Shown here piece after piece: positions 2,731 through 41,758 of a stretch of DNA of 64,000 nt (position 1 is the stretch's first letter; the number at the start of each line of letters is the position of its first letter). The notes beneath the pieces were generated by a model. That model searched no databases, had not been told where the DNA came from, and saw nothing but the letters and a program-made list of their open reading frames with translations. The DNA comes from Escherichia phage heid: the sequence record MN850577.1. One strand, written 5' to 3'. A program made the translations under genes and the position numbers.

Positions 2731-4077
2731 TTATTTGATAAGAGATTTTAGAGCATTCTGGAGAGCCAGTTTGCGTTGTTCAGCGGTGTCTTCGGAAGCA
2801 TTCTTAGCTGGTTCTTTTTCTTCTTCAACCAAATCAGCTTCGCCGTCATTACCCACTTCTTCCATAGCGTTGGAATGTTCAAGAACAGCACCAGCAGTTT
2901 CTTTCAGCTTGGTAATTTCTGATTCTTTTTCTTCCATTGCAGAAGCATGGGACGCGATAGTTTCATTAAGTTTCTGGTTAGCACCTTCCATAGCATTCAT
3001 AAACAGAACACTCAGAGGGTTGTCAAGACCAGCACCTAAAATAGCCGTTGCAGCTTCTTTTGCATCAAACCCAAAAGCTTCAGCAGAAGCAGAAATCTTA
3101 TTAGTCAAATCTGACAAAGCAGCTTCCTGTTCTTTAGCTTTCATTTGAGCAACCTGAAGACGCAAAGCTTCTAGTTCTTGCTTTTCTTGTTCAGTCATTT
3201 CTTCACCTGAATTGTTAACGTTTAAACTTACAGGAGCCTCTTCAGAACCTTGTAAGTAATTTAAGAAATCATCTTGAGACATGATTGAGTTAATTAAACC
3301 AAGTTCAAGAGCTTCCTGAGCAGAATAAACATTCGCCTCAGTATTCTTTACAGCTTCTTCAGAGAGATTACGAGATTCGGCTACAAAACCTGTAAAGGTT
3401 GCGTAGGTATCATTAATTCTCTTTTGAAGTCTTTCTTTGCTTTCTTCTGAAAGTGCTTGGAATGGTGAACCCATACCTTTAAACTCACCAGCTTTGATGA
3501 CGTTAATTGTCACGCCATTCTTTTCAAATGCTTTAGTTAATTCCTGATGAACCATAATTACACCAATAGAACCAACATCTGCATCTGGTGATGCAATAAT
3601 TTCTTCAGCAGAAGATGCAAGAGCGTATGCAGCGGAACAAGCGAACTCATCTACATAAGCAATAATTTTCTTTTGGCCTCTTGAAGCCATAATGTGACGT
3701 GCTAATTCAAAGCAACCTGAAGCTTCACCACCACCAGAATCAATGTGCAGAACGATAGTCTTAATTGACTCATCTGCTAAAGCTTCGTCAAAGCCTCTAC
3801 GCAAACCTTCATAAGAGCTTAATCCACCTGTACACATTGCATCAATGAATGTCATACGATGGGTTAAACCACCCATAATAGGGATAATAGCAATGTCATC
3901 TTTTACTTTTAAAAGACTTCTTGCGTCACCTTTGGGTTTATCAAAGTTTACTGCTGCTTGGACATCACCCAGCAATCTGTTATTCACATAAGTTGCTGCT
4001 GAGTGAGCTAATGATTCAGTGGCTAGTAAAGGTTGGTTGAATAATCTATCAGCAAGTCTGAAGATATTCGAACTCAT
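2731..4077 (-). CDS. prohead protease (S49/ClpP-fold) fused to scaffold-like C-terminal domain
   Basis: N-terminal half resembles S49/SppA-type phage prohead proteases (IPIMGGL, VLHIDSGGG, CSAAYALAS, GSIGVIMVH); C-terminal ~200 aa is E/K/A-rich and coiled-coil-like. Confidence 0.7.
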   Translation of the reverse strand: MSSNIFRLADRLFNQPLLATESLAHSAATYVNNRLLGDVQAAVNFDKPKGDARSLLKVKDDIAIIPIMGGLTHRMTFIDAMCTGGLSSYEGLRRGFDEALADESIKTIVLHIDSGGGEASGCFELARHIMASRGQKKIIAYVDEFACSAAYALASSAEEIIASPDADVGSIGVIMVHQELTKAFEKNGVTINVIKAGEFKGMGSPFQALSEESKERLQKRINDTYATFTGFVAESRNLSEEAVKNTEANVYSAQEALELGLINSIMSQDDFLNYLQGSEEAPVSLNVNNSGEEMTEQEKQELEALRLQVAQMKAKEQEAALSDLTNKISASAEAFGFDAKEAATAILGAGLDNPLSVLFMNAMEGANQKLNETIASHASAMEEKESEITKLKETAGAVLEHSNAMEEVGNDGEADLVEEEKEPAKNASEDTAEQRKLALQNALKSLIK

Positions 4078-8449: not shown

Positions 8450-8525
8450 TGGAGAATCCGAAGGGACTCGAACCCTTATAAACCTGTTTTGCAGACAGGC
8501 ACATATCCATTTCTGTCACGGATTC
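8450..8525 (-). tRNA. tRNA-Cys (anticodon GCA)
   Basis: Hand-folded cloverleaf: acceptor GAATCCG/CGGATTC, anticodon stem CCTGT/ACAGG, loop CTGCAAA, T-loop TTCGAGT, CCA encoded. Confidence 0.7.
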
Positions 8526-8529
8526 AAAT

Positions 8530-8623
8530 TGGAGGAAGATACCAGACTTGAACTGGTACACCGATTTCTCAGCTACTGGCAGTTTAGCAAACTGCTCCCT
8601 TACCTTTTAGGGTTAATCTTCCA
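8530..8623 (-). tRNA. tRNA-Ser (anticodon GCT), long variable arm
   Basis: Acceptor GGAAGAT/ATCTTCC, anticodon stem GCAGT/ACTGC, loop TTGCTAA, long variable arm, T-loop TTCAAGT. Confidence 0.65.
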
Positions 8624-9358
8624 TTATTTCTGTAATGCGCTCTTCATTTCTGGTGTTGCAATAGTGTCAATCACACCAGTTTTACAAGCATCGTCAAACC
8701 AGTCTGGTAAGATACCTGCTAAGAACCCATTGATATTCGTTTTAAGGTACTCTGCAATAAGGGCAGCTTCTTCTTCAATCATCTGCACAACTTCATCTGC
8801 ATAAGCTGTAATCTTTGAAATACCTTCATTAATCTTACTGACAGCTTGGTTAGCTAAATCAGAAACAGTATCAAGACCCTTATCAATAGCATCTTGTAAG
8901 TCACTTAACACACCATTAACACTATCTAGTGTACTGTTCATCATGTCAATAGCTTTTTGACCATACTCTGTAGCAACACCCATGATACCACTGAATGGTG
9001 TACAACCAACTTGTTCTCCTGCTGCACCCATAACATTGGAATACCCCTTTGCTACCTGCATACGTGATGAAAACTCATCAATAGATTTTTGACCGTAGTC
9101 TGTCAGAGTTTTAGTAGTTGCTGTAGTGCTTGTAAGGCTTGTTGTAAAGCTGTTTAGAAGGACTGTTGTAAGTCCAGCAGCAACAAGTTTCTCCTTCATT
9201 GTAGGGTCTGTTACAGAACTAATAGAGCTTACAAGTGATGTAGAGGCAGCTACGGTTCCACCGAGAACTGCTGCACCAGTAATAAGCGGGTTAGAGAACC
9301 CTTTACCAGTTTTTAAGAGATTAAAAATCTCCTTACCTTGTTCTGTCATCTCTTTCAT
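8624..9358 (-). CDS. hypothetical protein (Thr/Ser-rich central region)
   Basis: The 265 aa ORF call extends into tRNA-Phe; the ATG at 9358 (MKEMTEQGKEIF...) is the likely true start, giving a 244 aa product. Confidence 0.45.
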   Translation of the reverse strand: MKEMTEQGKEIFNLLKTGKGFSNPLITGAAVLGGTVAASTSLVSSISSVTDPTMKEKLVAAGLTTVLLNSFTTSLTSTTATTKTLTDYGQKSIDEFSSRMQVAKGYSNVMGAAGEQVGCTPFSGIMGVATEYGQKAIDMMNSTLDSVNGVLSDLQDAIDKGLDTVSDLANQAVSKINEGISKITAYADEVVQMIEEEAALIAEYLKTNINGFLAGILPDWFDDACKTGVIDTIATPEMKSALQK

Positions 9359-9374
9359 TAAGCACCTTTGAAAT

Positions 9375-9449
9375 TGGTAGTCCAGTGGGATTTGAACCCT
9401 CTTCTCATGTTTTTCAGACACGCGCTTTAACCATATAAGCTACTTGGAC
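9375..9449 (-). tRNA. tRNA-Phe (anticodon GAA)
   Basis: Acceptor GTCCAAG, D-stem GCTT/AAGC, anticodon stem CGTGT/ACATG, loop CTGAAAA, T-loop TTCAAAT, CCA encoded. Confidence 0.75.
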
Positions 9450-9457
9450 TATAAATT

Positions 9458-9532
9458 GGGGTGACCTACGGGATTTGAACCCGTATAGACCATGTTCACA
9501 GCATGGGTCATTACCGTTTATGATAAGGCCAC
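9458..9532 (-). tRNA. tRNA-His (anticodon GTG)
   Basis: Acceptor GTGGCCT/AGGTCAC, D-stem TCAT/ATGA, anticodon stem CCATG/CATGG, loop CTGTGAA. Confidence 0.7.
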
Positions 9533-9563
9533 ATTTAAGGACTCTCGCAAGAATCCTTAGAAG

Positions 9564-9639
9564 TGGCAGCGGCATAAGGATTTGAACCTTAATAGGACAG
9601 CTTCAGAGGCTGCTGCATTGCCAGTTATGCTATACCGCT
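9564..9639 (-). tRNA. tRNA-Gln (anticodon CTG)
   Basis: Acceptor AGCGGTA/TGCCGCT, anticodon stem GCAGC/GCTGT, loop CTCTGAA, T-loop TTCAAAT. Confidence 0.65.
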
Positions 9640-9644
9640 AAATT

Positions 9645-9723
9645 TGGTACTCCATATCGGATTCGAACCGATACATAACACAGATTTTAAGTCTGGCCTC
9701 TCTGCCAATTGGAGTAATGGAGC
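9645..9723 (-). tRNA. short tRNA with leucine-type anticodon TAA, no long variable arm, discriminator A
   Basis: Acceptor GCTCCAT/ATGGAGT, anticodon loop CTTAAAA on a 4-bp stem, T-loop TTCGAAT; about 79 nt. Confidence 0.5.
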
Positions 9724-9725
9724 AT

Positions 9726-9800
9726 TGGCGGGGGATGTTGGAATTGAACCAACTTCTTCGATTTCAAAGACCGAGGTTTTAACCTTGTAAACTAATCCCC
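9726..9800 (-). tRNA. tRNA-Gln (anticodon TTG), tentative
   Basis: Anticodon stem TCGGT/ATCGA, loop CTTTGAA, T-loop TTCAATT; acceptor pairing imperfect in my fold. Confidence 0.5.
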
Positions 9801-9809
9801 TTTAAATCT

Positions 9810-10367
9810 TTACTTTCTCAGTGGATGAATAAAGAATGCCAACATAACTCTTTCCCTTGAGAATGCTCTTTCTTCTGGGACAACACTTTTTAGTTTCCAT
9901 CCAATATAAATTCTCCAGTAAAATTGTTTACCAAAGATTTTAATTGATGGGATAAAAGCGAATAATCCCCAAGCATTACTGTTCCACATTAGGAGATAAC
10001 CTGTCTGATTATCTTCGGGGTCAGAACTTACGTTGATATTACCTTTCCACTTAGTAACATCTCTTACATCTCTTCCTAATACATGGTAAGAGAAGTTATA
10101 AGCTTTGTTTCTCCAGAGCCATCCGACTCTTTGCATGTAGACACCTAGTTTACCAATCCATCTAATATTAGCCCATCTTTTAACGTGACCTTCATCACCA
10201 TCAATTGGGTTGTCATATGTCTCCATCCATCTGAACCCGAAAGGTAAGTGCCCTTTCTTCTCACTGTAGAATGGAACTACAAAAGGTGCTAAGATAACTG
10301 CTAAGATTGCTGCAAATGGCTCTAACAAAGCTAAGAAAATCCATGAAGCATACTTCAAATATCTCAT
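9810..10367 (-). CDS. hypothetical membrane protein embedded in the tRNA cluster
   Basis: 185 aa ORF with hydrophobic N-terminus (IFLALLEPFAAILAVILAPFVVPF) and W/Y-rich body, flanked by tRNA genes. Confidence 0.5.
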   Translation of the reverse strand: MRYLKYASWIFLALLEPFAAILAVILAPFVVPFYSEKKGHLPFGFRWMETYDNPIDGDEGHVKRWANIRWIGKLGVYMQRVGWLWRNKAYNFSYHVLGRDVRDVTKWKGNINVSSDPEDNQTGYLLMWNSNAWGLFAFIPSIKIFGKQFYWRIYIGWKLKSVVPEERAFSRERVMLAFFIHPLRK

Positions 10368-10386
10368 CTAAATAGCCTCTTTAAAT

Positions 10387-10462
10387 TGGCGCAGGATAAG
10401 GGATTCGAACCCCTATTAACAGCTTCGTAGACTGTTGCTCTATCCATTTGAACTAATCCTGC
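10387..10462 (-). tRNA. tRNA-Arg (anticodon ACG)
   Basis: Acceptor GCAGGAT/ATCCTGC, D-stem GTTC/GAGC, anticodon stem ACAGT/GCTGT, loop CTACGAA, T-loop TCGAATC. Confidence 0.7.
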
Positions 10463-10467
10463 AAAAT

Positions 10468-10545
10468 TGGTGTTCCAAGACGGATTCGAACCGTCACTAA
10501 TACAAGGTTTGAGCTTGCATCCTCTGCCAATTGGGATACTGGAAC
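10468..10545 (-). tRNA. short tRNA with leucine-type anticodon CAA, no long variable arm, discriminator A
   Basis: Acceptor GTTCCAG/TTGGAAC, anticodon stem GCAAG/CTTGT, loop CTCAAAC, T-arm GACGG-TTCGAAT-CCGTC; about 78 nt. Confidence 0.5.
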
Positions 10546-10546
10546 A

Positions 10547-10621
10547 TGGTACTCACTAAAGGACTTGAACCTTTTTCTTCATCTTGTAAGGGTGATGTTT
10601 TACCATATAAACTAAGCGAGT
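10547..10621 (-). tRNA. tRNA-Val (anticodon TAC)
   Basis: Acceptor ACTCGCT/AGTGAGT, D-stem GTTT/AAAC, anticodon loop CTTACAA, T-arm AAAGG-TTCAAGT-CCTTT. Confidence 0.6.
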
Positions 10622-10715
10622 ATGAAAGAGGTCTGAAGTTGTGCCGCTAACTCAACTTCGTGGAATTTGTTACGGTCTTCAGTTGACTCAAAGCGGTCTT
10701 TCACTTGACCTCTGA
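10622..10715 (-). ncRNA. structured non-tRNA element between tRNA genes (candidate small RNA or processing element)
   Basis: About 90 nt with outer inverted repeat AGAGGTC...GACCTCT and inner 7-bp hairpin GAAGTTG...CAACTTC; carries the recurrent GGTCTTCAG motif; does not fold as a cloverleaf. Confidence 0.3.
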
Positions 10716-10717
10716 AT

Positions 10718-10793
10718 TGGTGCTCCCACAAGGACTCGAACCCTGATAAGTTGCTTACAAGGCAACCGTAATAACCAATTATACGATAGGAGC
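10718..10793 (-). tRNA. tRNA-Thr (anticodon TGT)
   Basis: Acceptor GCTCCTA/TGGGAGC, anticodon stem GTTGC/GCAAC, loop CTTGTAA, T-arm CAGGG-TTCGAGT-CCTTG. Confidence 0.7.
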
Positions 10794-10800
10794 ATTAATT

Positions 10801-10877
10801 TGGAGCATCCAGAGGGAATCGAACCCTCAACCTCAGTTTGGAAGACTGTAATTTTCCCGTTTAAACTATGGATGCAC
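10801..10877 (-). tRNA. tRNA-Gly (anticodon TCC)
   Basis: Anticodon stem ACAGT/ACTGA (one mismatch), loop CTTCCAA, T-loop TTCGATT, CCA encoded. Confidence 0.6.
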
Positions 10878-10881
10878 TAAT

Positions 10882-10957
10882 TGGTGGAGTCACTGAGAAT
10901 TGAACTCAGTTCCCAAGTTTGCAAAACTCGAATTTTAACCATATAAACTATGACCCC
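10882..10957 (-). tRNA. tRNA-Ala (anticodon TGC)
   Basis: Acceptor GGGGTCA with G3:U70 wobble (alanine identity element), D-stem GTTT/AAAT, anticodon stem CGAGT/ACTTG, loop TTTGCAA. Confidence 0.7.
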
Positions 10958-10963
10958 ATTGTT

Positions 10964-11039
10964 TGGTACAGGTGGAGGGAATTGAACCCATCGTCTTACT
11001 GATTAAGAGTCAGCCGCATAACCATTTTGCTACACCTGC
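10964..11039 (-). tRNA. tRNA-Lys (anticodon CTT), tentative
   Basis: Acceptor GCAGGTG/CACCTGT, anticodon stem GCTGA/TCAGT, loop CTCTTAA, T-loop TTCAATT. Confidence 0.55.
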
Positions 11040-11046
11040 ATTAATT

Positions 11047-11123
11047 TGGTACACCTAGAGAGATTCGAACTCACACTGAGCAGATTCTAAGTCTGCTGCC
11101 TCTACCAGTTGGGCTATAGGTGC
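11047..11123 (-). tRNA. short tRNA with leucine-type anticodon TAG, no long variable arm, discriminator A
   Basis: Clean 76-nt cloverleaf: acceptor GCACCTA/TAGGTGT, anticodon stem GCAGA/TCTGC, loop CTTAGAA, T-loop TTCGAAT. Confidence 0.6.
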
Positions 11124-11377
11124 ATTAAATCTTTTTAGAGAACTTCTAAGAACCTGAGCAACAAGGTTCCACAACAAGCGACTAATAACCTTAGAAGCCC
11201 TCTAAAAAGACCTAAATAGGTCTTTGCATAGTCTTGTTTAATCCGGTGACTAGAACCTTTGGAGAGCTTGATATTATCTCTTCTCCGTGACACCTACTAG
11301 GTGCTTTGACAGTGTACGACAATACACGAGGGATAAACCGACAATGCGAACAAGCATGGACGGAGTAAATCTTATTA
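11124..11377 (-). ncRNA. ORF-free about 250-nt spacer in tRNA cluster (candidate structured RNA, e.g. Y-RNA-like or intron remnant)
   Basis: No convincing ORF (the 64 aa call 11212..11406 overlaps tRNA-Ser); multiple local inverted repeats; lies between two tRNA genes. Confidence 0.25.
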
Positions 11378-11467
11378 GGCGGTAAGTAAAGGAGTCGAAC
11401 CCTCACCGTATCTCTACAGTGGCAACAGTTTTCAAGACTGTTTGGCTGCCATTAGCCGCTACCTACC
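11378..11467 (-). tRNA. tRNA-Ser (anticodon TGA), long variable arm
   Basis: Acceptor GGTAGGT/ACTTACC, anticodon stem ACAGT/ACTGT, loop CTTGAAA, long variable arm, T-loop TTCGACT; terminal CCA not fully encoded. Confidence 0.65.
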
Positions 11468-11480
11468 CCTAATAAGACTT

Positions 11481-11567
11481 TGGCATGGGACGGAGGAGTT
11501 GAACCCCTTTGAAACGGTTTTGGAGGCCGTTGCTCATGCCTTAGAGTCTTAACATCGTCCCATATTA
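11481..11567 (-). tRNA. atypical tRNA-like gene (possibly anticodon CCA, Trp); structure not canonical in my fold
   Basis: Acceptor ATGGGAC/GTCCCAT, T-loop TTCAACT, CCA encoded; candidate anticodon loop CTCCAAA, but the D region is over-long. Confidence 0.4.
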
Positions 11568-11700
11568 TAATTCGAAGCTTACCCTGTTATCTCAACACTG
11601 TCAAGCTTCTTCTCAGATTATTTACATGTTCTGGAAAACATGAGATACAGACCACCTCCCTACAGGAAGACCCGCTTAGGTCGTCTAAGTAATCTGCTAA

Positions 11701-12048
11701 CTAATACTTTGCATGTCTTACCCTATGGCAATTTGAACATAGCAAAACACATTTGTCAAGTTCATCTTTTAGTTCTTGAGAGAACTTAAGGCTTTTCCTA
11801 TGACCAATGTTAAAATCTTTATCTGAAGGATTCAAATGATGGAAGTCATACACTGCTGGATGATATTTCTTACCACAATCATGACAAACCCCACCTTTGT
11901 ACTCAATAGCTGAGAGTTTAAGTGCTCTTTGTCTTTCTATGGTTTGCTCATTAACACACTTTTTACAGTATGAATGAGTTCTCCTACCATCTTTCATGTA
12001 GAAATCATTTTCATCCTTGCTAAGTTTGCACCTAATACAAGTTTTCAT
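11701..12048 (-). CDS. HNH homing endonuclease inserted in the tRNA cluster
   Basis: Likely start MKTCIRC at 12048; paired zinc-binding motifs CIRC...CKKC and CHDCG...CSNCH plus HH...N typical of HNH nucleases; sits between tRNA genes. Confidence 0.6.
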   Translation of the reverse strand: MKTCIRCKLSKDENDFYMKDGRRTHSYCKKCVNEQTIERQRALKLSAIEYKGGVCHDCGKKYHPAVYDFHHLNPSDKDFNIGHRKSLKFSQELKDELDKCVLLCSNCHRVRHAKY

Positions 12049-12062
12049 GATTTCTCCAAAAT

Positions 12063-12144
12063 TGGTCGAGGCGGCAGGACTCGAACCCGCATACTCCACT
12101 TACTCGGTTAACGTCTGTTTAGAAGACAGATGAGATACGCCCCG
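12063..12144 (-). tRNA. tRNA-like gene, type undetermined (an anticodon-like loop reads TCT)
   Basis: Acceptor CGGGGCG/CGCCTCG, T-arm GCGGG-TTCGAGT-CCTGC, CCA encoded; the internal arms do not fold canonically by hand. Confidence 0.4.
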
Positions 12145-12392
12145 TAATTATCTTTAAAGACTCTCTTAGAAAGCCCTTAAAGATGCCCACCTTATTAATC
12201 ATACCGTGGGCGAGTACGCCAAATTCTTTGATGAGGGATTGGAAGACCTCACTGGTGTTTAGCCTATCAAGCTACTGCCAGAAAAACATTGTCGTTTGCA
12301 TTTATTTTAAATTTGCAAAATAGACGCTACGCAACGAAAACTAAGGTTACTATAAAGTAGTCACATCTCAATGTCAACAACTTTATTGAAAT
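12145..12392 (-). ncRNA. ORF-free about 250-nt spacer in tRNA cluster (candidate structured RNA)
   Basis: No ORF; AT-rich with embedded TTGACA-like boxes; between the HNH-adjacent tRNA and tRNA-Ile. Confidence 0.2.
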
Positions 12393-12468
12393 TGGTACTG
12401 GTAGGTGGAATCGAACCACCGATGTTCCCTTATCAGGGGAGTGTTATAACCTTCTTAACTATACCAGC
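12393..12468 (-). tRNA. tRNA-Ile (anticodon GAT)
   Basis: Acceptor GCTGGTA/TACCAGT, anticodon loop CTGATAA on stem TCCC/GGGA, T-arm GGTGG-TTCGATT-CCACC. Confidence 0.6.
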
Positions 12469-12469
12469 T

Positions 12470-12546
12470 TGGAGGTTCAGATGGGAATCGAACCCACATT
12501 CATAGGGCTTATGAGACCCTTGCATTACCTTATCTGCGACTGAACC
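12470..12546 (-). tRNA. tRNA-Met (anticodon CAT; could be elongator, initiator or Ile2)
   Basis: Acceptor GGTTCAG/CTGAACC, anticodon stem AGGGT/GCCCT, loop CTCATAA, T-loop TTCGATT. Confidence 0.6.
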
Positions 12547-12550
12547 ATAT

Positions 12551-12626
12551 TGGTAGAAGTGGAGGGATTCGAACCCATCGCCTGTCAGATTAAAAGTCTG
12601 CCGCATCACCATTCTGCTACACTTCC
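12551..12626 (-). tRNA. tRNA-Lys (anticodon TTT)
   Basis: Acceptor GGAAGTG/CACTTCT, anticodon loop CTTTTAA, T-loop TTCGAAT. Confidence 0.6.
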
Positions 12627-13056
12627 ATTAAATTATCTTTGTAGATAAGCTACCCAGACTTGCTTAAGGTCTGTAGCGATGTGCCTTTTTTGGGTTTAAA
12701 TCTAGAATTTACCCATTCACCCTTTGTGGTCGCATACTCACAAGTAAGCTTAATAACTTATCTACAAAGGTAATTACCAGACCGTTGTTTATCATCTTAA
12801 GTGCTACCATTACACCAACTCGACATCTGCCGAGTGAAGGAATCGAACCTTCGCCTTTTCTTTACCGGAGAAATAGATTGTTTAAGTTTTGCTGTAAACG
12901 GCCTTCTGTAAATTTGTTGAGCCAGACCAAGTTTTAAATTTTCAAAATTAAATTGGCTTGAAATTTCATACATTCTTGCTGTATTTGGTCTTCTGCTCCC
13001 TTAAAGAATACTCGTAAGAACTCTTTAAGGGAGGGGCTAAATAGCCCTCTCAAAAT
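12627..13056 (-). ncRNA. ORF-free spacer with tRNA-like fragment (T-arm GAAGG-TTCGATT-CCTTC near 12830) and repeated trailer motifs
   Basis: Contains a T-arm-like hairpin without a complementary acceptor partner, two copies of TTGCTGTA..GG(C/T)CTTCTG, and a GGGGCT/AGCCCT hairpin near 13030. Confidence 0.25.
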
Positions 13057-13133
13057 TGGCGGCTACGATGAGACTTGAACTCACATCATCTCCCGTGACA
13101 GGGGAGTATTTTCTCCAGTTAAACTACATAGCC
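13057..13133 (-). tRNA. tRNA-Asp (anticodon GTC)
   Basis: Acceptor GGCTATG/CGTAGCC, anticodon stem CTCCC/GGGAG, loop CTGTCAC, T-arm GTGAG-TTCAAGT-CTCAT. Confidence 0.7.
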
Positions 13134-13138
13134 TTTAT

Positions 13139-13226
13139 TGGTGTGCCGTGTAGGAGTCGAACCTACCGAGTCTCAATGACAAGGGATTTACAGTCCCCAC
13201 CGCTACCATCTACGGGATAACGACAC
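13139..13226 (-). tRNA. tRNA-Tyr (anticodon GTA), long variable arm
   Basis: Acceptor GTGTCGT/ACGGCAC, anticodon stem GGGGA/TCCCT, loop CTGTAAA, long variable arm, T-loop TTCGACT. Confidence 0.65.
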
Positions 13227-13234
13227 ATTTAATT

Positions 13235-13311
13235 TGGCGGTTAGTCAGGGATTCGAACCCTGTGCCATTCGCTTAACAGGCGACCGCACATACCTTATGT
13301 GCTTCCTAACC
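13235..13311 (-). tRNA. tRNA-Asn (anticodon GTT)
   Basis: Acceptor GGTTAGG/ACTAACC, anticodon loop CTGTTAA, T-arm CAGGG-TTCGAAT-CCCTG. Confidence 0.6.
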
Positions 13312-13389
13312 TTAATACATTGCCAGACCGTGTTTTTTCTGTTATCCGCAAAAAAGTATTTTGTTGCTGAATACGGTCTTCTGCAAAAT

Positions 13390-13465
13390 TGGAGGCGGGT
13401 GCAGGAGTCGAACCTGCCGATACCATGCTAATGAGACATGTGAGACGCCCTTTCTCTATACCCGC
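13390..13465 (-). tRNA. second tRNA with anticodon CAT (Met/fMet/Ile2)
   Basis: Acceptor GCGGGTA/TGCACCC, anticodon stem CATGT/GCATG, loop CTCATTA, T-loop TTCGACT. Confidence 0.6.
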
Positions 13466-13557
13466 AATTCTTAATGACCAGACCAAATCTCTTCTTTGTC
13501 CGATTTACCTTCAGATGAATAAGATTAAGTTTGCTGTAATTGGTCTTCTGTCAAAAC

Positions 13558-13635
13558 TGGCGTTCCAGAAGGGATTTGAACCCTCAGATATCCACTTTGA
13601 AAGAGTGGTGACTATACCATTTTGTCTACTGGAAC
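13558..13635 (-). tRNA. tRNA-Glu (anticodon TTC)
   Basis: Acceptor GTTCCAG/CTGGAAC, anticodon stem CCACT/AGTGG, loop CTTTCAA, T-loop TTCAAAT. Confidence 0.7.
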
Positions 13636-13642
13636 ATTAATT

Positions 13643-13718
13643 TGGTCTCTGTTGGAGGACTTGAACCTCCGGCCTTACCGCCCCAAACGGAACGCTCTAC
13701 CAATCTGAGCTAAACAGA
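13643..13718 (-). tRNA. tRNA-Pro (anticodon TGG)
   Basis: Acceptor CTCTGTT/AACAGAG, D-arm AGCTCAGATTGGTAGAGC, anticodon loop TTTGGGG, T-arm GGAGG-TTCAAGT-CCTCC. Confidence 0.65.
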
Positions 13719-13837
13719 GATAAACTTTTCAAACTCTATGTAACCACTTTAACATTATTTTTTAGTGATTGTCAAGAACTTTTTTAAAATATTTTTCAGT
13801 ATCTTAGAAAAGCTCTCATTTCGCTTCTATGTAGAAC

Positions 13838-13884: not shown

Positions 13885-15300
13885 TTACCAGATATAACGG
13901 TCAATCATTACTGCTTTGAGCATTACACTGATTGGGTCAAACTTCTCACCACCAAGCAGAGCTTTTAAAGTGGCTGGAGAGAACCCTGATACCATTGCTA
14001 CACCGTTATCCTTAACAGATACTTCGCAAGTACCATTACGGTTTGCTAAGTACCAGAATACCAGTTGTGGCATCTCATATCCAGCTTTTTTGTACTTACT
14101 CTGAATTGCTTCAAAGTTTGTACGACCGTTAGCTCCATCAACCTGATTAAACTCCATATCGGAGAAGATGATAAGCTTACTTGGCATATCTTTCTGAGTC
14201 AAGTTGTTTCTTTTACCTGTTTCAAGAATGCGGTCAAAAGCTGCTTGTAAGTTAGTTGAGCCATATTCAACGTGTCGCATCACCTGACGATGACGGTTTC
14301 GTAAATCACCACTCAGTTCGATGAAGTGAGGGTTTGTTGAATAAACCATTAACTCATTCTTAAAGCAACCTGTATTGCGTTCTGCTACATACAAGGCAAG
14401 TGATACACCAATATCCAGAGCAGTAATGGAGCCAAAATTCACCCAAGACATTGAACTTGATACATCAGACATACACAAGATGTTTTCACCTTCTGCCATC
14501 CAGTTTGGTAGTGCTTTCCACTGCTCATTAGCAACATCTGCATTACCATACTTGACAGATTTAATCACATCGTATGGGTAAACAGCACCAGCGTTAATCT
14601 TAGTCTCACCTTTTGATAAGGACTCGATGTAAGCTTTGTAACGCTCTCCATCTTTACGGTTAAACAGTTTTTGGTAACGTGCAGCAGCAAGTGAAGGAAT
14701 CTTACTGTAGTCAATCTTACCAAACTCATTAGCAGAGATTTTTTGCTCAACTGTATCAGATAGTGCAGACAACAGTGTGCGGTACTCTTTCTCACTCAAG
14801 TTGGCAAACTTGCAGAAACGTTTTACAAACTGCTTATGACGTGGTTTGACTCGTGGTAACCACTTAGCCGCCAAACCTGCTGTTGCAGGGTCTAGTAATG
14901 CTGCTTCTAAATGTTTGAAGGCATCTGTCTCGAAACGAGTACCTACGAAGATTTTGAAGTCATCAAAACGACCAAGTTCTGCAATCTTATCCATAATGCG
15001 AAGAACCTGCGTAGACTCTAAAACTTTGTCTTCAATTGCTTGAAGCAAAACAGTTCTGAAGGCTTTACGCTCACCCATACCTTCTCGTACATCTCGCATA
15101 TGAAGCAAAATACGAACTGCAACATCAACATCCTCACGCAAAGCTTTGTAGAACAGGTCTGGTAAGATTTCTACGTTGCTACGGCTTGAACCAGCAGCTT
15201 TGTAAAAGTTTACTAGAGCAGACATTGATGAAGTATGGTTTACAGCACCATTTTCAGTTCGACCTGCATGAAGGTGCGCATGTTTAAATAATTCGCTCAT
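13885..15300 (-). CDS. vWA-domain protein with MIDAS motif; possibly TROVE/Ro60-like or DUF2828-like
   Basis: 471 aa; helical N-terminal about 270 aa, then a DxSxS MIDAS motif (CMSDVSSSMS) and a C-terminal segment ending LIIFSDMEF, as in vWA folds; adjacent to the tRNA cluster. Confidence 0.45.
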   Translation of the reverse strand: MSELFKHAHLHAGRTENGAVNHTSSMSALVNFYKAAGSSRSNVEILPDLFYKALREDVDVAVRILLHMRDVREGMGERKAFRTVLLQAIEDKVLESTQVLRIMDKIAELGRFDDFKIFVGTRFETDAFKHLEAALLDPATAGLAAKWLPRVKPRHKQFVKRFCKFANLSEKEYRTLLSALSDTVEQKISANEFGKIDYSKIPSLAAARYQKLFNRKDGERYKAYIESLSKGETKINAGAVYPYDVIKSVKYGNADVANEQWKALPNWMAEGENILCMSDVSSSMSWVNFGSITALDIGVSLALYVAERNTGCFKNELMVYSTNPHFIELSGDLRNRHRQVMRHVEYGSTNLQAAFDRILETGKRNNLTQKDMPSKLIIFSDMEFNQVDGANGRTNFEAIQSKYKKAGYEMPQLVFWYLANRNGTCEVSVKDNGVAMVSGFSPATLKALLGGEKFDPISVMLKAVMIDRYIW

Positions 15301-39034: not shown

Positions 39035-40816
39035 TTAAAGCTGCTTGTCAATATTATTTCGAATATCACCAAGAGTTGTGTAACCAAACTGCTCAGAGTC
39101 ACTAAAGACTAAACGTAAAGCACAAGCTGGGTGGTCAAGTACATCTGCAAAACTCTGGAATCCATAGCCATCTACAGCTTTCAGCTTACCACCATCCCAC
39201 ATAGGTGCTACACCACCAAAGGCAGATTTCTTAACACCACTATCTGTTTTAGGGTCTTTTGCAAGCATAATCTCTTTACCACCAATGCTTGCAAGAGTTG
39301 CTTTGACAGCAAATGCAAAGGTGTCACGAGTCATGTACTGGTAAGTGTAAGAACCTACGCCAAACACTACGTTAGAGCTTGCAAAACCCATTTCATACAG
39401 ACGCTTCAGGATTTCGTTTGCACGTTCCAGCGTGATAGAGTCACCATAGATAAGTCCGATATGCTCATCCAGTACCTTAAACCCTTTAGAGTTAATAGTT
39501 CCCCCAAAGATGTTGTACAGTGTCTTAATAGCTCCATCAATCTCAGCTACAGGACGTGTTACAACGTTTGCAGAACCAACCATATAAGCGTTTTTCAACA
39601 GCACTGTATCAGCAACTTCAAAGTCTTCTCTGTCAACAACCATTTCGTAGCCTTCTGACAGTAGCCATCCAGCAATACCATAATTGATGTTTTCAAGCTT
39701 CATGTTCAGAACAGCATTCAACATTGTGTCACTGGCTTCAAGCTTGCTTAAGTGTTCGTAATAAGCCTTTTTAGCACACTCTAAGTGGATTGCTTTATAA
39801 CCTGTGACAATATGTACAGGGTCTCCAGAGTCAGGACGAATTACCAGTTTACCGTCACGTCCCATAATCTCTTTGCGAAGTGCTGGTAAGATTTCTGACA
39901 CAGTTCTCCAGAAGTTATAAGTGTCTGAAACAACACTTGCAATACCAGTTGGGTAAGTTTCTGTTAAGAAACGACGGAAGGTTTGTAACTCACCTTTAAA
40001 GCGTCTTTCTTCTTCAATCAACTCATTACCACCTTCCCAAGCAATGTTTGCACACATTACAGAGTGCTCAGTGGCTGGTACAGAGCTACCAATATCAGAG
40101 ATTGGGTAGGACTGTCCATAGATTCGTTTAGCCGTATACACAGCAGGGAAGCTATCAGTTCCTTTAAAGCTGGTTAAGTGGCCTACAGCGTTAAATGCGT
40201 CATCAGTAAAGCCGGACATACCACGCATAGCAAAGTCATGGCACTGATAAGGCAAATGCAAGTCGTTGTCACAAGTAAGGTCAGCCCACTTCTTACAGAT
40301 ACGTTTGTAGTGCAATGCAATAGTTGCAATGGTACAAGCCTTCCAAATCTCAGCAGAGAAAGCATCTTCCAGATAACCTGCTACCCAATGGAAACCTGAA
40401 ACAGTGTTCTGGAAAACAATCATTGGGACACGCATAGGGACAACTGTACCTTCTTCTACAGCGTATACTTCAACTGGTAGATAACCTAAGTCGTGAAGTG
40501 CTTCCCAATGCTCTCGACTGATAGCATCTTTACCCAGAACACCATTCATGACTTCTAAGATTTCATCAATGGCTTCTTTTTTATCACGTTCAAAGAAAGT
40601 GGCGTTCCAGTGGTCTATCAAGTAATCTTTAACGAAACGTTGAATACCAAAAGCTACTACACCATCAATTGCTAAGGGGCTGTTAAACCATTTGTCACTA
40701 CGTGGTGTCAGGTTGAACATCAAGTACTCTGTTGCACTAGGGTACTGGTAAACATGACCAGATTTGTAAGCATCTGCGTTTAAACCTGCTGGTACTGCAT
40801 AAAGTGATTTAGTCAT
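39035..40816 (-). CDS. nicotinamide phosphoribosyltransferase family protein (NadV/Namat-like)
   Basis: 593 aa; N-terminal NADAYKSGHVYQYP matches the NAMPT signature (DSYK..H..QYP); adjacent to a Prs-like gene. Confidence 0.7.
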   Translation of the reverse strand: MTKSLYAVPAGLNADAYKSGHVYQYPSATEYLMFNLTPRSDKWFNSPLAIDGVVAFGIQRFVKDYLIDHWNATFFERDKKEAIDEILEVMNGVLGKDAISREHWEALHDLGYLPVEVYAVEEGTVVPMRVPMIVFQNTVSGFHWVAGYLEDAFSAEIWKACTIATIALHYKRICKKWADLTCDNDLHLPYQCHDFAMRGMSGFTDDAFNAVGHLTSFKGTDSFPAVYTAKRIYGQSYPISDIGSSVPATEHSVMCANIAWEGGNELIEEERRFKGELQTFRRFLTETYPTGIASVVSDTYNFWRTVSEILPALRKEIMGRDGKLVIRPDSGDPVHIVTGYKAIHLECAKKAYYEHLSKLEASDTMLNAVLNMKLENINYGIAGWLLSEGYEMVVDREDFEVADTVLLKNAYMVGSANVVTRPVAEIDGAIKTLYNIFGGTINSKGFKVLDEHIGLIYGDSITLERANEILKRLYEMGFASSNVVFGVGSYTYQYMTRDTFAFAVKATLASIGGKEIMLAKDPKTDSGVKKSAFGGVAPMWDGGKLKAVDGYGFQSFADVLDHPACALRLVFSDSEQFGYTTLGDIRNNIDKQL

Positions 40817-40861
40817 CTTTTAATCTCTCTCAAAATGGGGCTTTTAAGCCCCTATAAACTT

Positions 40862-41758
40862 TCAATCAAGGTTTGCTACAGTAACTTGACTGTAATGTGT
40901 TAAGCCACGGTCTTTAGCTTCGCCTAAAGAGTTTGTAGTGTAAATATGGTCGATACCATTGTCAAGAAGGTTTTCAACATCTTTAGAGAAGATACCATGT
41001 GTTACATAAAGTTCCACACGTTTTGCACCTGCTTCACGAAGATGCTTCGCTGCTTCTATGAAGGTTCGACCACCATCACAGATATCATCCAGAATCATGA
41101 CGGTTTTATCTGTCAAATCAACATCATCAAGGATTCGCATACCAGTAATTTCACCAGTCTTAAGGTTACGCACTTTAGACATTGTGATGTATGGTTTATC
41201 CACCTCTTTAGCAGTCTCTGCAATCTTCTTAGCAGCACCTGCATCTGGGGCTACTAAGTAATCAATCAGTGGGTCATTTGCATAGTGGACTGCAATTTCC
41301 TTTTGAGGAATACTCTGGAAGCAGTTAAACAGGTTATCTGGTACATAGCTGTGAGGGTCAACTGCACAGACTGCATCAAAACCCATTGCATTAACCTGTT
41401 GTGCAAACACTTTCAAAGCTGCTGCATCACCTTTAAACATGTGACGGTCGTAACGTGCATTTGGCAAATAGTAAAAGATAGCAGTCTTCATAGCAAACTT
41501 ATGAGGTACTAAATCATCAATTGCTTCTTTAGCAAGTGCCACAGCAAACAATGTGTCCTTATCATAACCTTTTACAATCATAATCACATTGTTGATAGAT
41601 GATGCTGCATAAGCAGTAAAATCAACAAACTCTGGCGAAAAGTGTCCACCAATCTCACCAGAAGGGAATTGGACGATGTTAAACTCTTCTTCATGAGTCC
41701 CTTTAGTTGGTGAATGAACTGTAACACGGATAGATGTTTTCATAGTTTTCTCTCTCAA
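40862..41758 (-). CDS. ribose-phosphate pyrophosphokinase (Prs) family protein; candidate ADP-ribose pyrophosphokinase (Adps-like)
   Basis: 298 aa; phosphoribosyltransferase-type PRPP-binding motif VMILDDICDGGRT and C-terminal VTHGIFS, as in Prs. Confidence 0.6.
   Translation of the reverse strand: MREKTMKTSIRVTVHSPTKGTHEEEFNIVQFPSGEIGGHFSPEFVDFTAYAASSINNVIMIVKGYDKDTLFAVALAKEAIDDLVPHKFAMKTAIFYYLPNARYDRHMFKGDAAALKVFAQQVNAMGFDAVCAVDPHSYVPDNLFNCFQSIPQKEIAVHYANDPLIDYLVAPDAGAAKKIAETAKEVDKPYITMSKVRNLKTGEITGMRILDDVDLTDKTVMILDDICDGGRTFIEAAKHLREAGAKRVELYVTHGIFSKDVENLLDNGIDHIYTTNSLGEAKDRGLTHYSQVTVANLD

Follow-up and report, generated by a model that had tools for sequence, protein, structure and literature searches.

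Three leucine tRNA genes without a long arm

Escherichia phage heid (sequence record MN850577.1) is a Felixounavirus, and the stretch of its DNA analysed here, hereafter the window, comprises 64,000 nucleotides (nt) with 39% G+C. The window contains a tRNA gene cluster in which three genes have the leucine anticodons UAA, CAA and UAG (Table 1). Each of these tRNAs has a short variable loop and thereby the shape of a class I tRNA, and they have neither the variable stem-loop of more than 10 nt nor the G9 core that mark class II. In contrast, the variable regions of Ser(GCU), Ser(UGA) and Tyr(GUA) from the same cluster span 21, 20 and 15 nt, respectively. No long-armed tRNA with a Leu anticodon is present among the 25 ARAGORN and 24 Rfam tRNA calls made in the 64-kb window.

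Table 1. Coordinates of the tRNA cluster, the three leucine tRNA genes and their parts, and of other elements in the window
Feature	Position	Strand	Remarks
tRNA gene cluster	8450..13719	minus	25 tRNAs (ARAGORN), including three Leu
tRNA-Leu(UAA)	9645..9723	minus	76 nt + encoded CCA (79 nt); short-armed, type I
Variable loop GUUAUGU (7 nt) of Leu(UAA)	9673..9679	minus	last base U48, able to pair with A15
Anticodon loop CUUAAAA of Leu(UAA)	9685-9691	minus	A36A37A38 motif present
Anticodon UAA of Leu(UAA)	9687..9689	minus	reads TTA, TTG
tRNA-Leu(CAA)	10468..10545	minus	75 nt + encoded CCA (78 nt); short-armed, type I
Variable loop AUUAGU (6 nt) of Leu(CAA)	10496..10501	minus	last base U48
Anticodon loop CUCAAAC of Leu(CAA)	10507-10513	minus
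Anticodon CAA of Leu(CAA)	10509..10511	minus	reads TTG
tRNA-Leu(UAG)	11047..11123	minus	74 nt + encoded CCA (77 nt); short-armed, type I
Variable loop UCAGU (5 nt) of Leu(UAG)	11075..11079	minus	fits family consensus NCAGU; last base U48
Anticodon loop CUUAGAA of Leu(UAG)	11085-11091	minus	A37 where host tRNA has G37
Anticodon UAG of Leu(UAG)	11087..11089	minus	reads CTA, CTG; further CTN if U34 modified as in host
DUF7217 ORF	8624-9358	minus	conserved; annotated putative membrane protein
DUF7217 ORF, longest form	8624-9421	minus	GTG start; overlaps 3' part of tRNA-Phe gene
DUF7338 ORF	9810-10367	minus	conserved
Atypical cluster tRNAs (Ser(UGA), Tyr, one CAU)	11378-11467, 13139-13226, 13390-13466	minus	see text
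443-bp cassette	11704-12146	minus	contains the next two features
ORF in cassette	11701-12099		annotated elsewhere as HNH homing endonuclease
tRNA-like element in cassette	12066-12144		UCU anticodon
tRNA-like remnant	12828-12902	minus	spacer between Lys(UUU) and Asp tRNAs
471-aa ORF	13885-15300	minus	adjoins tRNA cluster; DUF2828 + DUF7788
Macro-domain protein	30764-31549	minus
NAMPT + PRPP-synthetase-like gene pair	39035-41743	minus	NAD salvage

The genes were called by ARAGORN as Leu(taa), Leu(caa) and Leu(tag) and were also found with the Rfam model RF00005, which scores them at 47.5 (UAA), 44.0 (CAA) and 57.3 bits (UAG) against a gathering score of 29. All three Rfam matches are full-length (model 1-71), with a 7-nt anticodon loop that includes U33. 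The position of the anticodon is identical in ARAGORN, Rfam and the model of the short-armed family described below. As all three also agree on the short loop, a hidden long arm or a shifted anticodon is ruled out. None of the search patterns that match Leu(UAA), Leu(CAA) or Leu(UAG) occurred in 100 shuffles of the window.

The three tRNAs share U8, A9, a 3-bp D stem with C13.A22 unpaired behind it, and U48 as the last base of the variable loop. They also have in common the D loop AAYUGGYAG, which provides A14, A15, G18, G19 and A20a, and the T loop UUCGAAU, which provides U54 and A58. In Leu(UAA), the acceptor stem GCUCCAU/AUGGAGU has a G1.U72 pair and is followed by U8 A9, a 3-bp D stem with C13.A22, the D loop AAUUGGCAG, the common T loop and A73. 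Leu(CAA) has the acceptor stem GUUCCAG/UUGGAAC together with U8 A9, C13.A22, the D loop AAUUGGCAG and A73. Leu(UAG) follows the family consensus at almost every base, with UA GCCC AACUGGUAG AGGC A, the anticodon stem strands GCAGA and UCUGC and the variable loop UCAGU; its T stem contains a single mismatch, U50.U64.

An earlier, sequence-only reading of the window had folded these tRNAs by hand, and its description is borne out in each particular. ARAGORN and Rfam call the tRNAs at exactly the positions that it gave; the anticodon loops, A73 and variable regions of 5-7 nt are as it claimed, and the ARAGORN check of the anticodons that it proposed returned those seen in the hand-folding. It had also noted the long arms of the Ser and Tyr tRNAs and the absence of a class II Leu tRNA from the cluster, and this absence extends to the ARAGORN and Rfam calls of the whole window. 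Covariance-model folding, which it had named as a possible refutation, puts the anticodon in the same place and brings out no long arm that had been missed.

A widespread family of short-armed leucine tRNAs

The three tRNAs are members of a widespread family of short-armed (type I) Leu tRNAs that is present in phages and native to Actinomycetota. When the 77-nt Leu(UAG) was used as the blastn query, near full-length, ungapped matches annotated as tRNA-Leu were found in unrelated phages of Mycobacterium, Streptomyces, Gordonia, Pseudomonas, Klebsiella/Cronobacter, Enterococcus and Prochlorococcus, and in a crAss-like phage. Examples of phages with short-armed Leu genes are Bixzunavirus of Mycobacterium, Certrevirus of Klebsiella/Cronobacter, Schiekvirus of Enterococcus and cyanophage P-RSM6, in addition to phages of Streptomyces and Pseudomonas and the crAss-like phage. 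The short loops of the blastn matches were confirmed by their annotated lengths (74-80 nt) and by ARAGORN, and the Ser tRNAs of these phages stay long. The genes have the same architecture as those of the window and are often 75-82% identical to its Leu(UAG), despite the unrelated hosts. They lie in tRNA clusters with HNH endonucleases, where neighbouring Ser tRNAs are long-armed, as in the window. These phages differ from heid in host and virus family, and some also keep a long-armed Leu tRNA.

The frequency of short arms was estimated with two pattern scans of viral contigs, in which any arm length was allowed between the anticodon loop and the T loop and ARAGORN was run on the loci returned. 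All fractions given for these scans and for the bacterial scan below are fractions of the matches listed; the viral ones are pattern-defined and represent a sample estimate rather than a census. A short loop (<=7 nt) is present in 95/347 Leu tRNAs (27%), in 0/97 Ser tRNAs and in 1/40 Tyr tRNAs. Short-armed Leu tRNAs at first seemed over-represented where viral loci are rich in tRNAs (p = 0.01 in the first scan), but the effect disappeared once the second scan was included (29% vs 25%) and was discarded.

Bacterial genomes, one per species, were scanned with a pattern that accepts short arms only. The matches listed are mostly lone tRNA genes on large contigs of Actinomycetota, including Mycobacterium, Nocardia, Pseudonocardia, Nonomuraea, Micromonospora and Amycolatopsis. 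The others come from metagenome-assembled genomes (Acidobacteriota, Planctomycetota, Elusimicrobia and Lachnospiraceae), in which they form part of dense arrays with 17-34 tRNAs in 8 kb. The result for Actinomycetota agrees with three published observations: the type I tRNA-Leu(CAA) of Streptomyces coelicolor (PMC6614811), the statement that among the Leu tRNAs of M. tuberculosis only tRNA-Leu-2, -3 and -5 have long loops (PMC11541572), and the brief mention of a short-loop tRNA-Leu(UAG) in a tRNA cluster that mycobacteria acquired by horizontal transfer (Behra et al. 2019, PMC6582537). The chromosomal short-armed genes contradict a review statement that Leu tRNAs are long-armed everywhere except in animal mitochondria.

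Further support for family membership came from a covariance model, R1, built from 140 distinct short-armed Leu tRNAs from bacterial and viral loci, each <=81% identical to those of the window; many of these training sequences had been found by a pattern that the window's Leu tRNAs also match. In the alignment of the 140, 98.1% of cells are paired, both partners have changed in 19/20 pairs, and covariation scores 0.956, compared with 0.204 in shuffles and <=0.17 in slid controls. R1 scores Leu(UAG) at 84.1, Leu(CAA) at 73.8 and Leu(UAA) at 72.5 bits, so that they lead the 60 matches obtained when the window was searched together with E. coli loci and the tRNA region of T5. By comparison, the next tRNA of the window scores 55.1, long-armed Leu tRNAs of E. 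coli score 48-60, and the best non-member overall scores 60.1. A14, A15, U48 and A73, none of which is part of the search patterns, are conserved at 96-100% in the family (A73 at 99%).

The absence of the arm is accompanied by a distinct core. The combination A9 / C13.A22 / C12-G23 is present in 3/3 Leu tRNAs of the window, in 113/156 short-armed Leu tRNAs of bacterial genomes and in 62/95 of viral contigs, whereas 231/247 long-armed viral Leu tRNAs have G9 / R13.A22 / G12-C23. A minority of short-armed Leu tRNAs retain the G9 core, which suggests, from sequence, that they are products of additional, more recent arm losses. The long-armed Leu tRNAs of E. coli K-12 and T5 resemble those of the window in their Leu anticodons, A73, A14 and A15-U48, in a D loop of the form AAYYGGUAG (G18G19, A20a) and in a 3-bp D stem with unpaired 13.22. 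They differ in having a variable stem-loop of 13-15 nt and the core G9 / G13.A22 / G12-C23. The five E. coli K-12 isoacceptors that were compared have the D loop AAUYGGUAG, A15-U48 and A73 with arms of 13-15 nt, G9 and G13.A22, so that the comparison with host tRNA-Leu that the earlier reading called for shows long arms in all those examined. In addition, the host tRNAs that read CUN have U32 and G37, compared with C32 and A37 in the window.

Actinobacterial genes are among the closest known counterparts of these tRNAs. The S. coelicolor type I tRNA-Leu(CAA) (PMC6614811) has, like Leu(UAG) of the window, a 5-nt loop of the NCAG(U/C) form, its own being ACAGC, and the lone Leu genes of Mycobacterium, Nocardia, Pseudonocardia and other Actinomycetota are equivalent to it. 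Likeness extends to U8 A9, to YCCC...AGGR with C13.A22, to the D loop AAYUGGCAG, to UUCGAAU, to A73 and to the Leu anticodons, and R1, which was built largely from actinobacterial genes, ranks the Leu tRNAs of the window top. There are, however, clear differences. The actinobacterial genes are chromosomal and belong to high-GC Gram-positive bacteria, whereas those of the window belong to a phage of Enterobacteria, whose own Leu tRNAs are long-armed. The Streptomyces leucyl-tRNA synthetase (LeuRS) charges both tRNA types (PMC6614811). The S. coelicolor tRNA has C48 where the window has U48, and two of the window's three loops are 6-7 nt long. Animal mitochondrial tRNA-Leu also has a short variable loop and is charged via A73 and A14 without a long arm (PMC9976931). 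However, the D and T loops of mitochondrial tRNAs are reduced, AT-rich and often non-canonical, and a dedicated LeuRS serves these tRNAs, whereas the D and T loops of the window's tRNAs are fully canonical bacterial ones.

Within the phage lineage the genes are strongly conserved. All three are 95-100% identical in ~250 Ounavirinae genomes: Leu(UAA) has >=99% identity in 215 phage records, Leu(CAA) has >=99% identity in 159, among them Felix O1 itself, and Leu(UAG) is 100% identical in many Felix O1-like phages. Most of the matching records already annotate the genes as tRNA-Leu. The more distant Erwinia phage Harbringer (Kolesnikvirus) has three short-armed Leu tRNAs (CAA, AAG and UAA) whose stems are different but compensated. 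A separate observation concerns Salmonella phage Si3, where a Leu-annotated tRNA (locus 4001-4076) is chimera-like, with a 5' end that matches the Leu(CAA) gene and a remainder that matches the Leu(UAA) gene. It has a G7.A66 acceptor mismatch, the intervening tRNAs are apparently deleted, and several neighbouring tRNAs are annotated as pseudo.

Degenerate copies do occur in phage clusters, as seen with the element at 12066-12144 without a D arm, the weak remnant at 12828-12902 and the chimeric Leu gene of Si3, and the three Leu genes could in principle be decaying or non-functional relics that lost the arm by deletion. This is extremely improbable given their identity across the ~250 genomes, the intact cloverleaf, encoded CCA and high covariance-model score of each, a core that is re-modelled in the same coordinated manner as in native actinobacterial genes, and the retention of short-armed Leu tRNAs with compensated stems in distant relatives.

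In a full-text literature search, no paper was found that describes short-armed Leu tRNAs for phages at large or for the Felix O1-like ones in particular, and in the searchable literature the short loop is remarked on only for the mycobacterial tRNA cluster, in a single sentence. The genes are already annotated in hundreds of records; no paper was found that remarks on their short arm in Felix O1-like phages or on how broad the family is in phages.

Leucine identity, charging and codon usage

The identity of E. coli tRNA-Leu resides in A73, A14, A15-U48, G18G19, A20a and U54-A58 (Giegé & Eriani 2023, PMC9976931; Fan et al. 2019, PMC6614811). The anticodon and the long arm are outside this set, and arm-less variants of tRNA-Leu stay active (PMC9976931, PMC6614811). 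For the Aquifex LeuRS, removal of the arm mainly lowers affinity, while deletion of U48 abolishes charging (PMC2377443). Serine identity, in contrast, depends chiefly on the long arm (PMC9976931). Leu tRNAs can therefore lose the arm while Ser tRNAs keep it. In addition, E. coli TrmL methylates arm-deleted tRNA-Leu(CAA) normally (PMC4615657), which means that the arm does not matter to at least one of the host's modification enzymes.

Each of the three phage tRNAs has U8-A14, A15-U48, G18G19, A20a, U54-A58 and A73. A15-U48 was considered as a Leu-specific mark in this phage and rejected: the pair is also present in many other tRNAs of this AT-rich cluster, which makes it necessary for Leu identity but not discriminating. 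A phage-encoded LeuRS was likewise rejected, as no synthetase domain was found in the 30 ORFs (open reading frames) scanned with Pfam, which include every non-overlapping ORF >=590 aa and leave out ~20 smaller ones; one 788-aa ORF among the 30 is without any Pfam match. A native or prophage copy of Leu(UAG) in E. coli was also sought, and there was no blastn match in 5,426 complete genomes.

The sequence-only reading had left two alternatives, namely that the tRNAs are unusual class-I Leu isoacceptors or that they are charged with something else. The first appears correct, as judged from the LeuRS identity set, the R1 ranking and the isotype scores of close relatives. Here, the orthologues in Shigella phage Sf14 are placed first by the Leu model of tRNAscan-SE, with scores of 67.4, 49.1 and 60.2 (PMC12482277, which is silent on the variable arm). 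In the closest Sf phages listed, Sf13 and Sf16, Leu(CAA) is 100% identical to that of the window (Sf13) and Leu(UAA) 98.7% (both). To call the tRNAs exceptional, however, was an overstatement: short-armed Leu tRNAs are native in Actinomycetota (PMC6614811) and make up about a quarter of the viral Leu tRNAs listed, and the arm is not an identity element for E. coli LeuRS (PMC9976931).

The second alternative would mean that another synthetase charges the tRNAs, thereby recoding or blurring TTA, TTG and CTA, or that they are uncharged decoys or regulators. In its favour, Leu tRNAs of class-I shape are atypical of the host, one short-armed Leu tRNA from Streptomyces was not charged by E. coli LeuRS (PMC6614811), and for the UAG tRNA of Sf14 the Ile2, Lys and Arg isotype models come close to Leu (PMC12482277). 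Nevertheless, this alternative is very improbable and the claim of charging with something else finds no support. The full Leu identity set is present in all three; the 3:70 pairs are U-A, U-A and A-U rather than the Ala determinant G3:U70; and short loops with A73 take the place of the long arm and G73 of Ser. Most other synthetases need anticodon bases that are lacking here (PMC9976931), and synthetases that accept A73 tRNAs mostly read anticodons other than these. The Leu model is the highest for all three Sf14 orthologues (PMC12482277), and the family has five other Leu anticodons and no non-Leu anticodons.

The codons point in the same direction. Phage NrdA is 34.6% identical to E. coli NrdA, and of the 25 TTA, TTG and CTA codons in phage nrdA, 11 align with Leu and 21 with L/I/V/M/F of the E. 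coli protein, compared with a background of 9.8% for Leu. TTA, TTG and CTA thus have a Leu-like meaning in the phage. Codon usage was compared between 50 long phage ORFs and 40 ORFs from a 50-kb E. coli K-12 segment. As fractions of Leu codons (phage vs E. coli sample), TTA is used at 0.23 vs 0.10, TTG at 0.16 vs 0.11, CTT at 0.29 vs 0.09, CTC at 0.05 vs 0.08, CTA at 0.11 vs 0.04 and CTG at 0.16 vs 0.57. The three codons that the earlier reading had singled out for this comparison, TTA, TTG and CTA, are all commoner in the phage, whose use of such codons is put at two to three times that of E. coli, and the three anticodons directly cover TTA, TTG, CTA and CTG.

The best explanation, which we hold to be very likely, is that the three are functional, host-charged Leu isoacceptors of class-I shape that belong to a conserved short-armed family and supplement rare codons. 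During infection, they would be transcribed from the phage tRNA cluster and charged with leucine by the host LeuRS through A73 and the core formed by the D loop, the T loop and 15-48, with the long arm being dispensable. The charged tRNAs would then decode TTA and TTG (UAA), TTG (CAA), and CTA, CTG and possibly other CTN codons (UAG), thereby serving the AT-rich codons of the phage where the E. coli pool is dominated by the CTG-reading tRNA. The Ser and Tyr tRNAs of the same cluster would keep their arms because Leu is the only long-armed isotype whose synthetase tolerates arm loss. The missing arm is read most simply as a feature of tRNAs that LeuRS would tolerate and that came to the phage lineage by acquisition or inheritance. 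Directly established are the genes, their fold and short loops, family membership, the Leu identity elements, the codon mismatch and the Leu-like codon meaning; expression, charging by the LeuRS of E. coli or Salmonella, and a benefit to the phage are inferred.

Several points weigh against this explanation. Thermodynamic folding z-scores are weak (-1.7, -2.2 and -0.3 for UAA, CAA and UAG), and Leu(UAA) does not take a cloverleaf shape at minimum energy. Weak z-scores and non-cloverleaf minimum-energy folds are normal for unmodified AT-rich tRNAs, and thermodynamic folding was dropped as evidence. Support for the three tRNAs comes instead from the covariance models, family covariation and conservation in relatives. 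Some pairs are imperfect, namely C27.U43 of Leu(UAA), U50.U64 of Leu(UAG) and the G1.U72 pairs, and the general tRNA model gives two of the three modest scores, 44 and 47.5 bits. The anticodon loop of Leu(UAG), CUUAGAA, differs from UUUAGGU of the host tRNA-Leu(UAG) at positions 32, 37 and 38, and the same three differences from the host are given for Sf14 (PMC12482277). As A37 replaces G37, Leu(UAG) cannot carry the host-type m1G37. For the Sf14 Leu(UAG), the Leu model is only ~2 bits over the runner-up (PMC12482277), and codon supplementation is one of several roles proposed for phage tRNAs (PMC10264068). The most direct objection is the reported failure of E. coli LeuRS to charge the short-armed tRNA-Leu(CAA) of Streptomyces, the enzyme being described there as one for long-armed Leu tRNAs only (Fan et al. 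2019, PMC6614811). Position 48 is C in the Streptomyces tRNA vs U, as needed for E. coli identity, in the phage tRNAs, and by comparison of the sequences this difference may explain the failure.

A further rival concerns not the identity of the tRNAs but why they exist and are short. Here, the short arm itself would have been selected because it makes Leu tRNAs insensitive to defence nucleases, toxins or a phage-induced host shut-off that recognise or cut the arm, and the phage tRNAs would replace a host Leu pool under destruction. There are precedents for the isotypes that do have arms: the E. coli defences retron-Eco7 and Septu cut host tRNA-Tyr in the variable arm, and T5 tRNA-Tyr escapes retron-Eco7 via a different variable loop (PMC13096335), while the mycobacterial toxin MenT3 picks tRNA-Ser by its long variable loop (PMC11541572). 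The restriction of short arms to Leu in the viral matches listed, with the Ser and Tyr counts given above, fits a picture in which Leu alone sheds the arm. Evasion of nucleases has been proposed as a role for anticodon-loop differences like those of Leu(UAG) (PMC10264068). Nevertheless, this rival is rather unlikely. We neither found nor know of a nuclease or toxin aimed at the arm of tRNA-Leu, and the short-armed family is a normal chromosomal tRNA in Actinomycetota, which makes a phage-specific reason unnecessary. In addition, long-armed Leu tRNAs are the majority on the viral contigs (among the matches listed), T5 has one, and some phages carry both forms. In its most developed form, the Felix O1-type tRNAs would be nuclease-proof replacements of the Leu pool, tuned by U48 to an enterobacterial LeuRS that rejects the actinobacterial version, a proposal drawn by analogy that we regard as doubtful. 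Host-charged isoacceptors that supplement rare codons remain the preferred explanation.

Neighbouring elements and wider meaning

The tRNA region of the window matches 371 phage records; it is shared at 99.7% identity with Escherichia phage fjerdesal and at 95% with Salmonella phage Felix O1. Small ORFs (DUF7217, DUF7338 and an HNH endonuclease cassette) are scattered among the tRNA genes of the cluster, which is flanked by the large terminase gene on one side and a vWA-like gene on the other. The 471-aa ORF of Table 1, which adjoins the cluster, is called a vWFA protein in the fjerdesal annotation. The surrounding genes fit Felixounavirus: they encode the major capsid protein, prohead protease, portal and large terminase, NrdA, NrdB, NrdD, NAMPT, a PRPP-synthetase-like protein, a primase-helicase and a family A DNA polymerase.

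Where the window has the 443-bp cassette, fjerdesal carries a normal 76-nt tRNA-Arg(UCU). The tRNA-like element within the cassette has 4 nt in place of the D arm and a variable region of ~20 nt. Its acceptor stem and T arm are good, A73 is retained and CCA is encoded; Rfam gives it 33.4 bits, and ARAGORN does not call it. A further 25 phage records contain the cassette in full. The weak remnant between the Lys(UUU) and Asp tRNAs scores 17.4 bits with R1 and 22 bits with Rfam and is probably a decayed tRNA gene. Among the other tRNAs, tRNA-Ser(UGA) has A8, a 3' end of CC rather than CCA and an Rfam score of only 31 bits, while tRNA-Tyr and one of the two CAU-anticodon tRNAs are called by ARAGORN yet fall below the Rfam gathering score. 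Several tRNAs of the cluster are therefore atypical. Elsewhere in the window, the macro-domain protein and the pair of genes for NAD (nicotinamide adenine dinucleotide) salvage are of interest in relation to ADP-ribosylation and NAD-depleting defences and are unrelated to the tRNAs.

One Streptomyces tRNA is the only characterised bacterial exception to long-armed tRNA-Leu, and it is reportedly not charged by E. coli LeuRS (PMC6614811). Here, a lineage of Felix O1-like coliphages and Salmonella phages relies entirely on short-armed Leu tRNAs, molecules of a known type, if an unusual one for this host. They are of interest because they seem to conflict with the specificity reported for E. coli LeuRS and may be linked to tRNA-targeting immunity. 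There is also a consequence for annotation, as such genes may be flagged or scored wrongly by tools and pipelines built on the expectation of a long arm in tRNA-Leu. Leu tRNAs alone among the class II isotypes can shed the arm and still suit their synthetase, and were the anti-defence proposal true, this would provide a nuclease-proof pool. With three natural tRNAs, a well-studied synthetase and a tractable phage, the system is testable: it could reveal what a bacterial LeuRS needs from a class-I-shaped tRNA, how the core is re-modelled at positions 9, 12-23 and 13 when the arm is lost, and whether arm loss protects from tRNA-targeting immunity.

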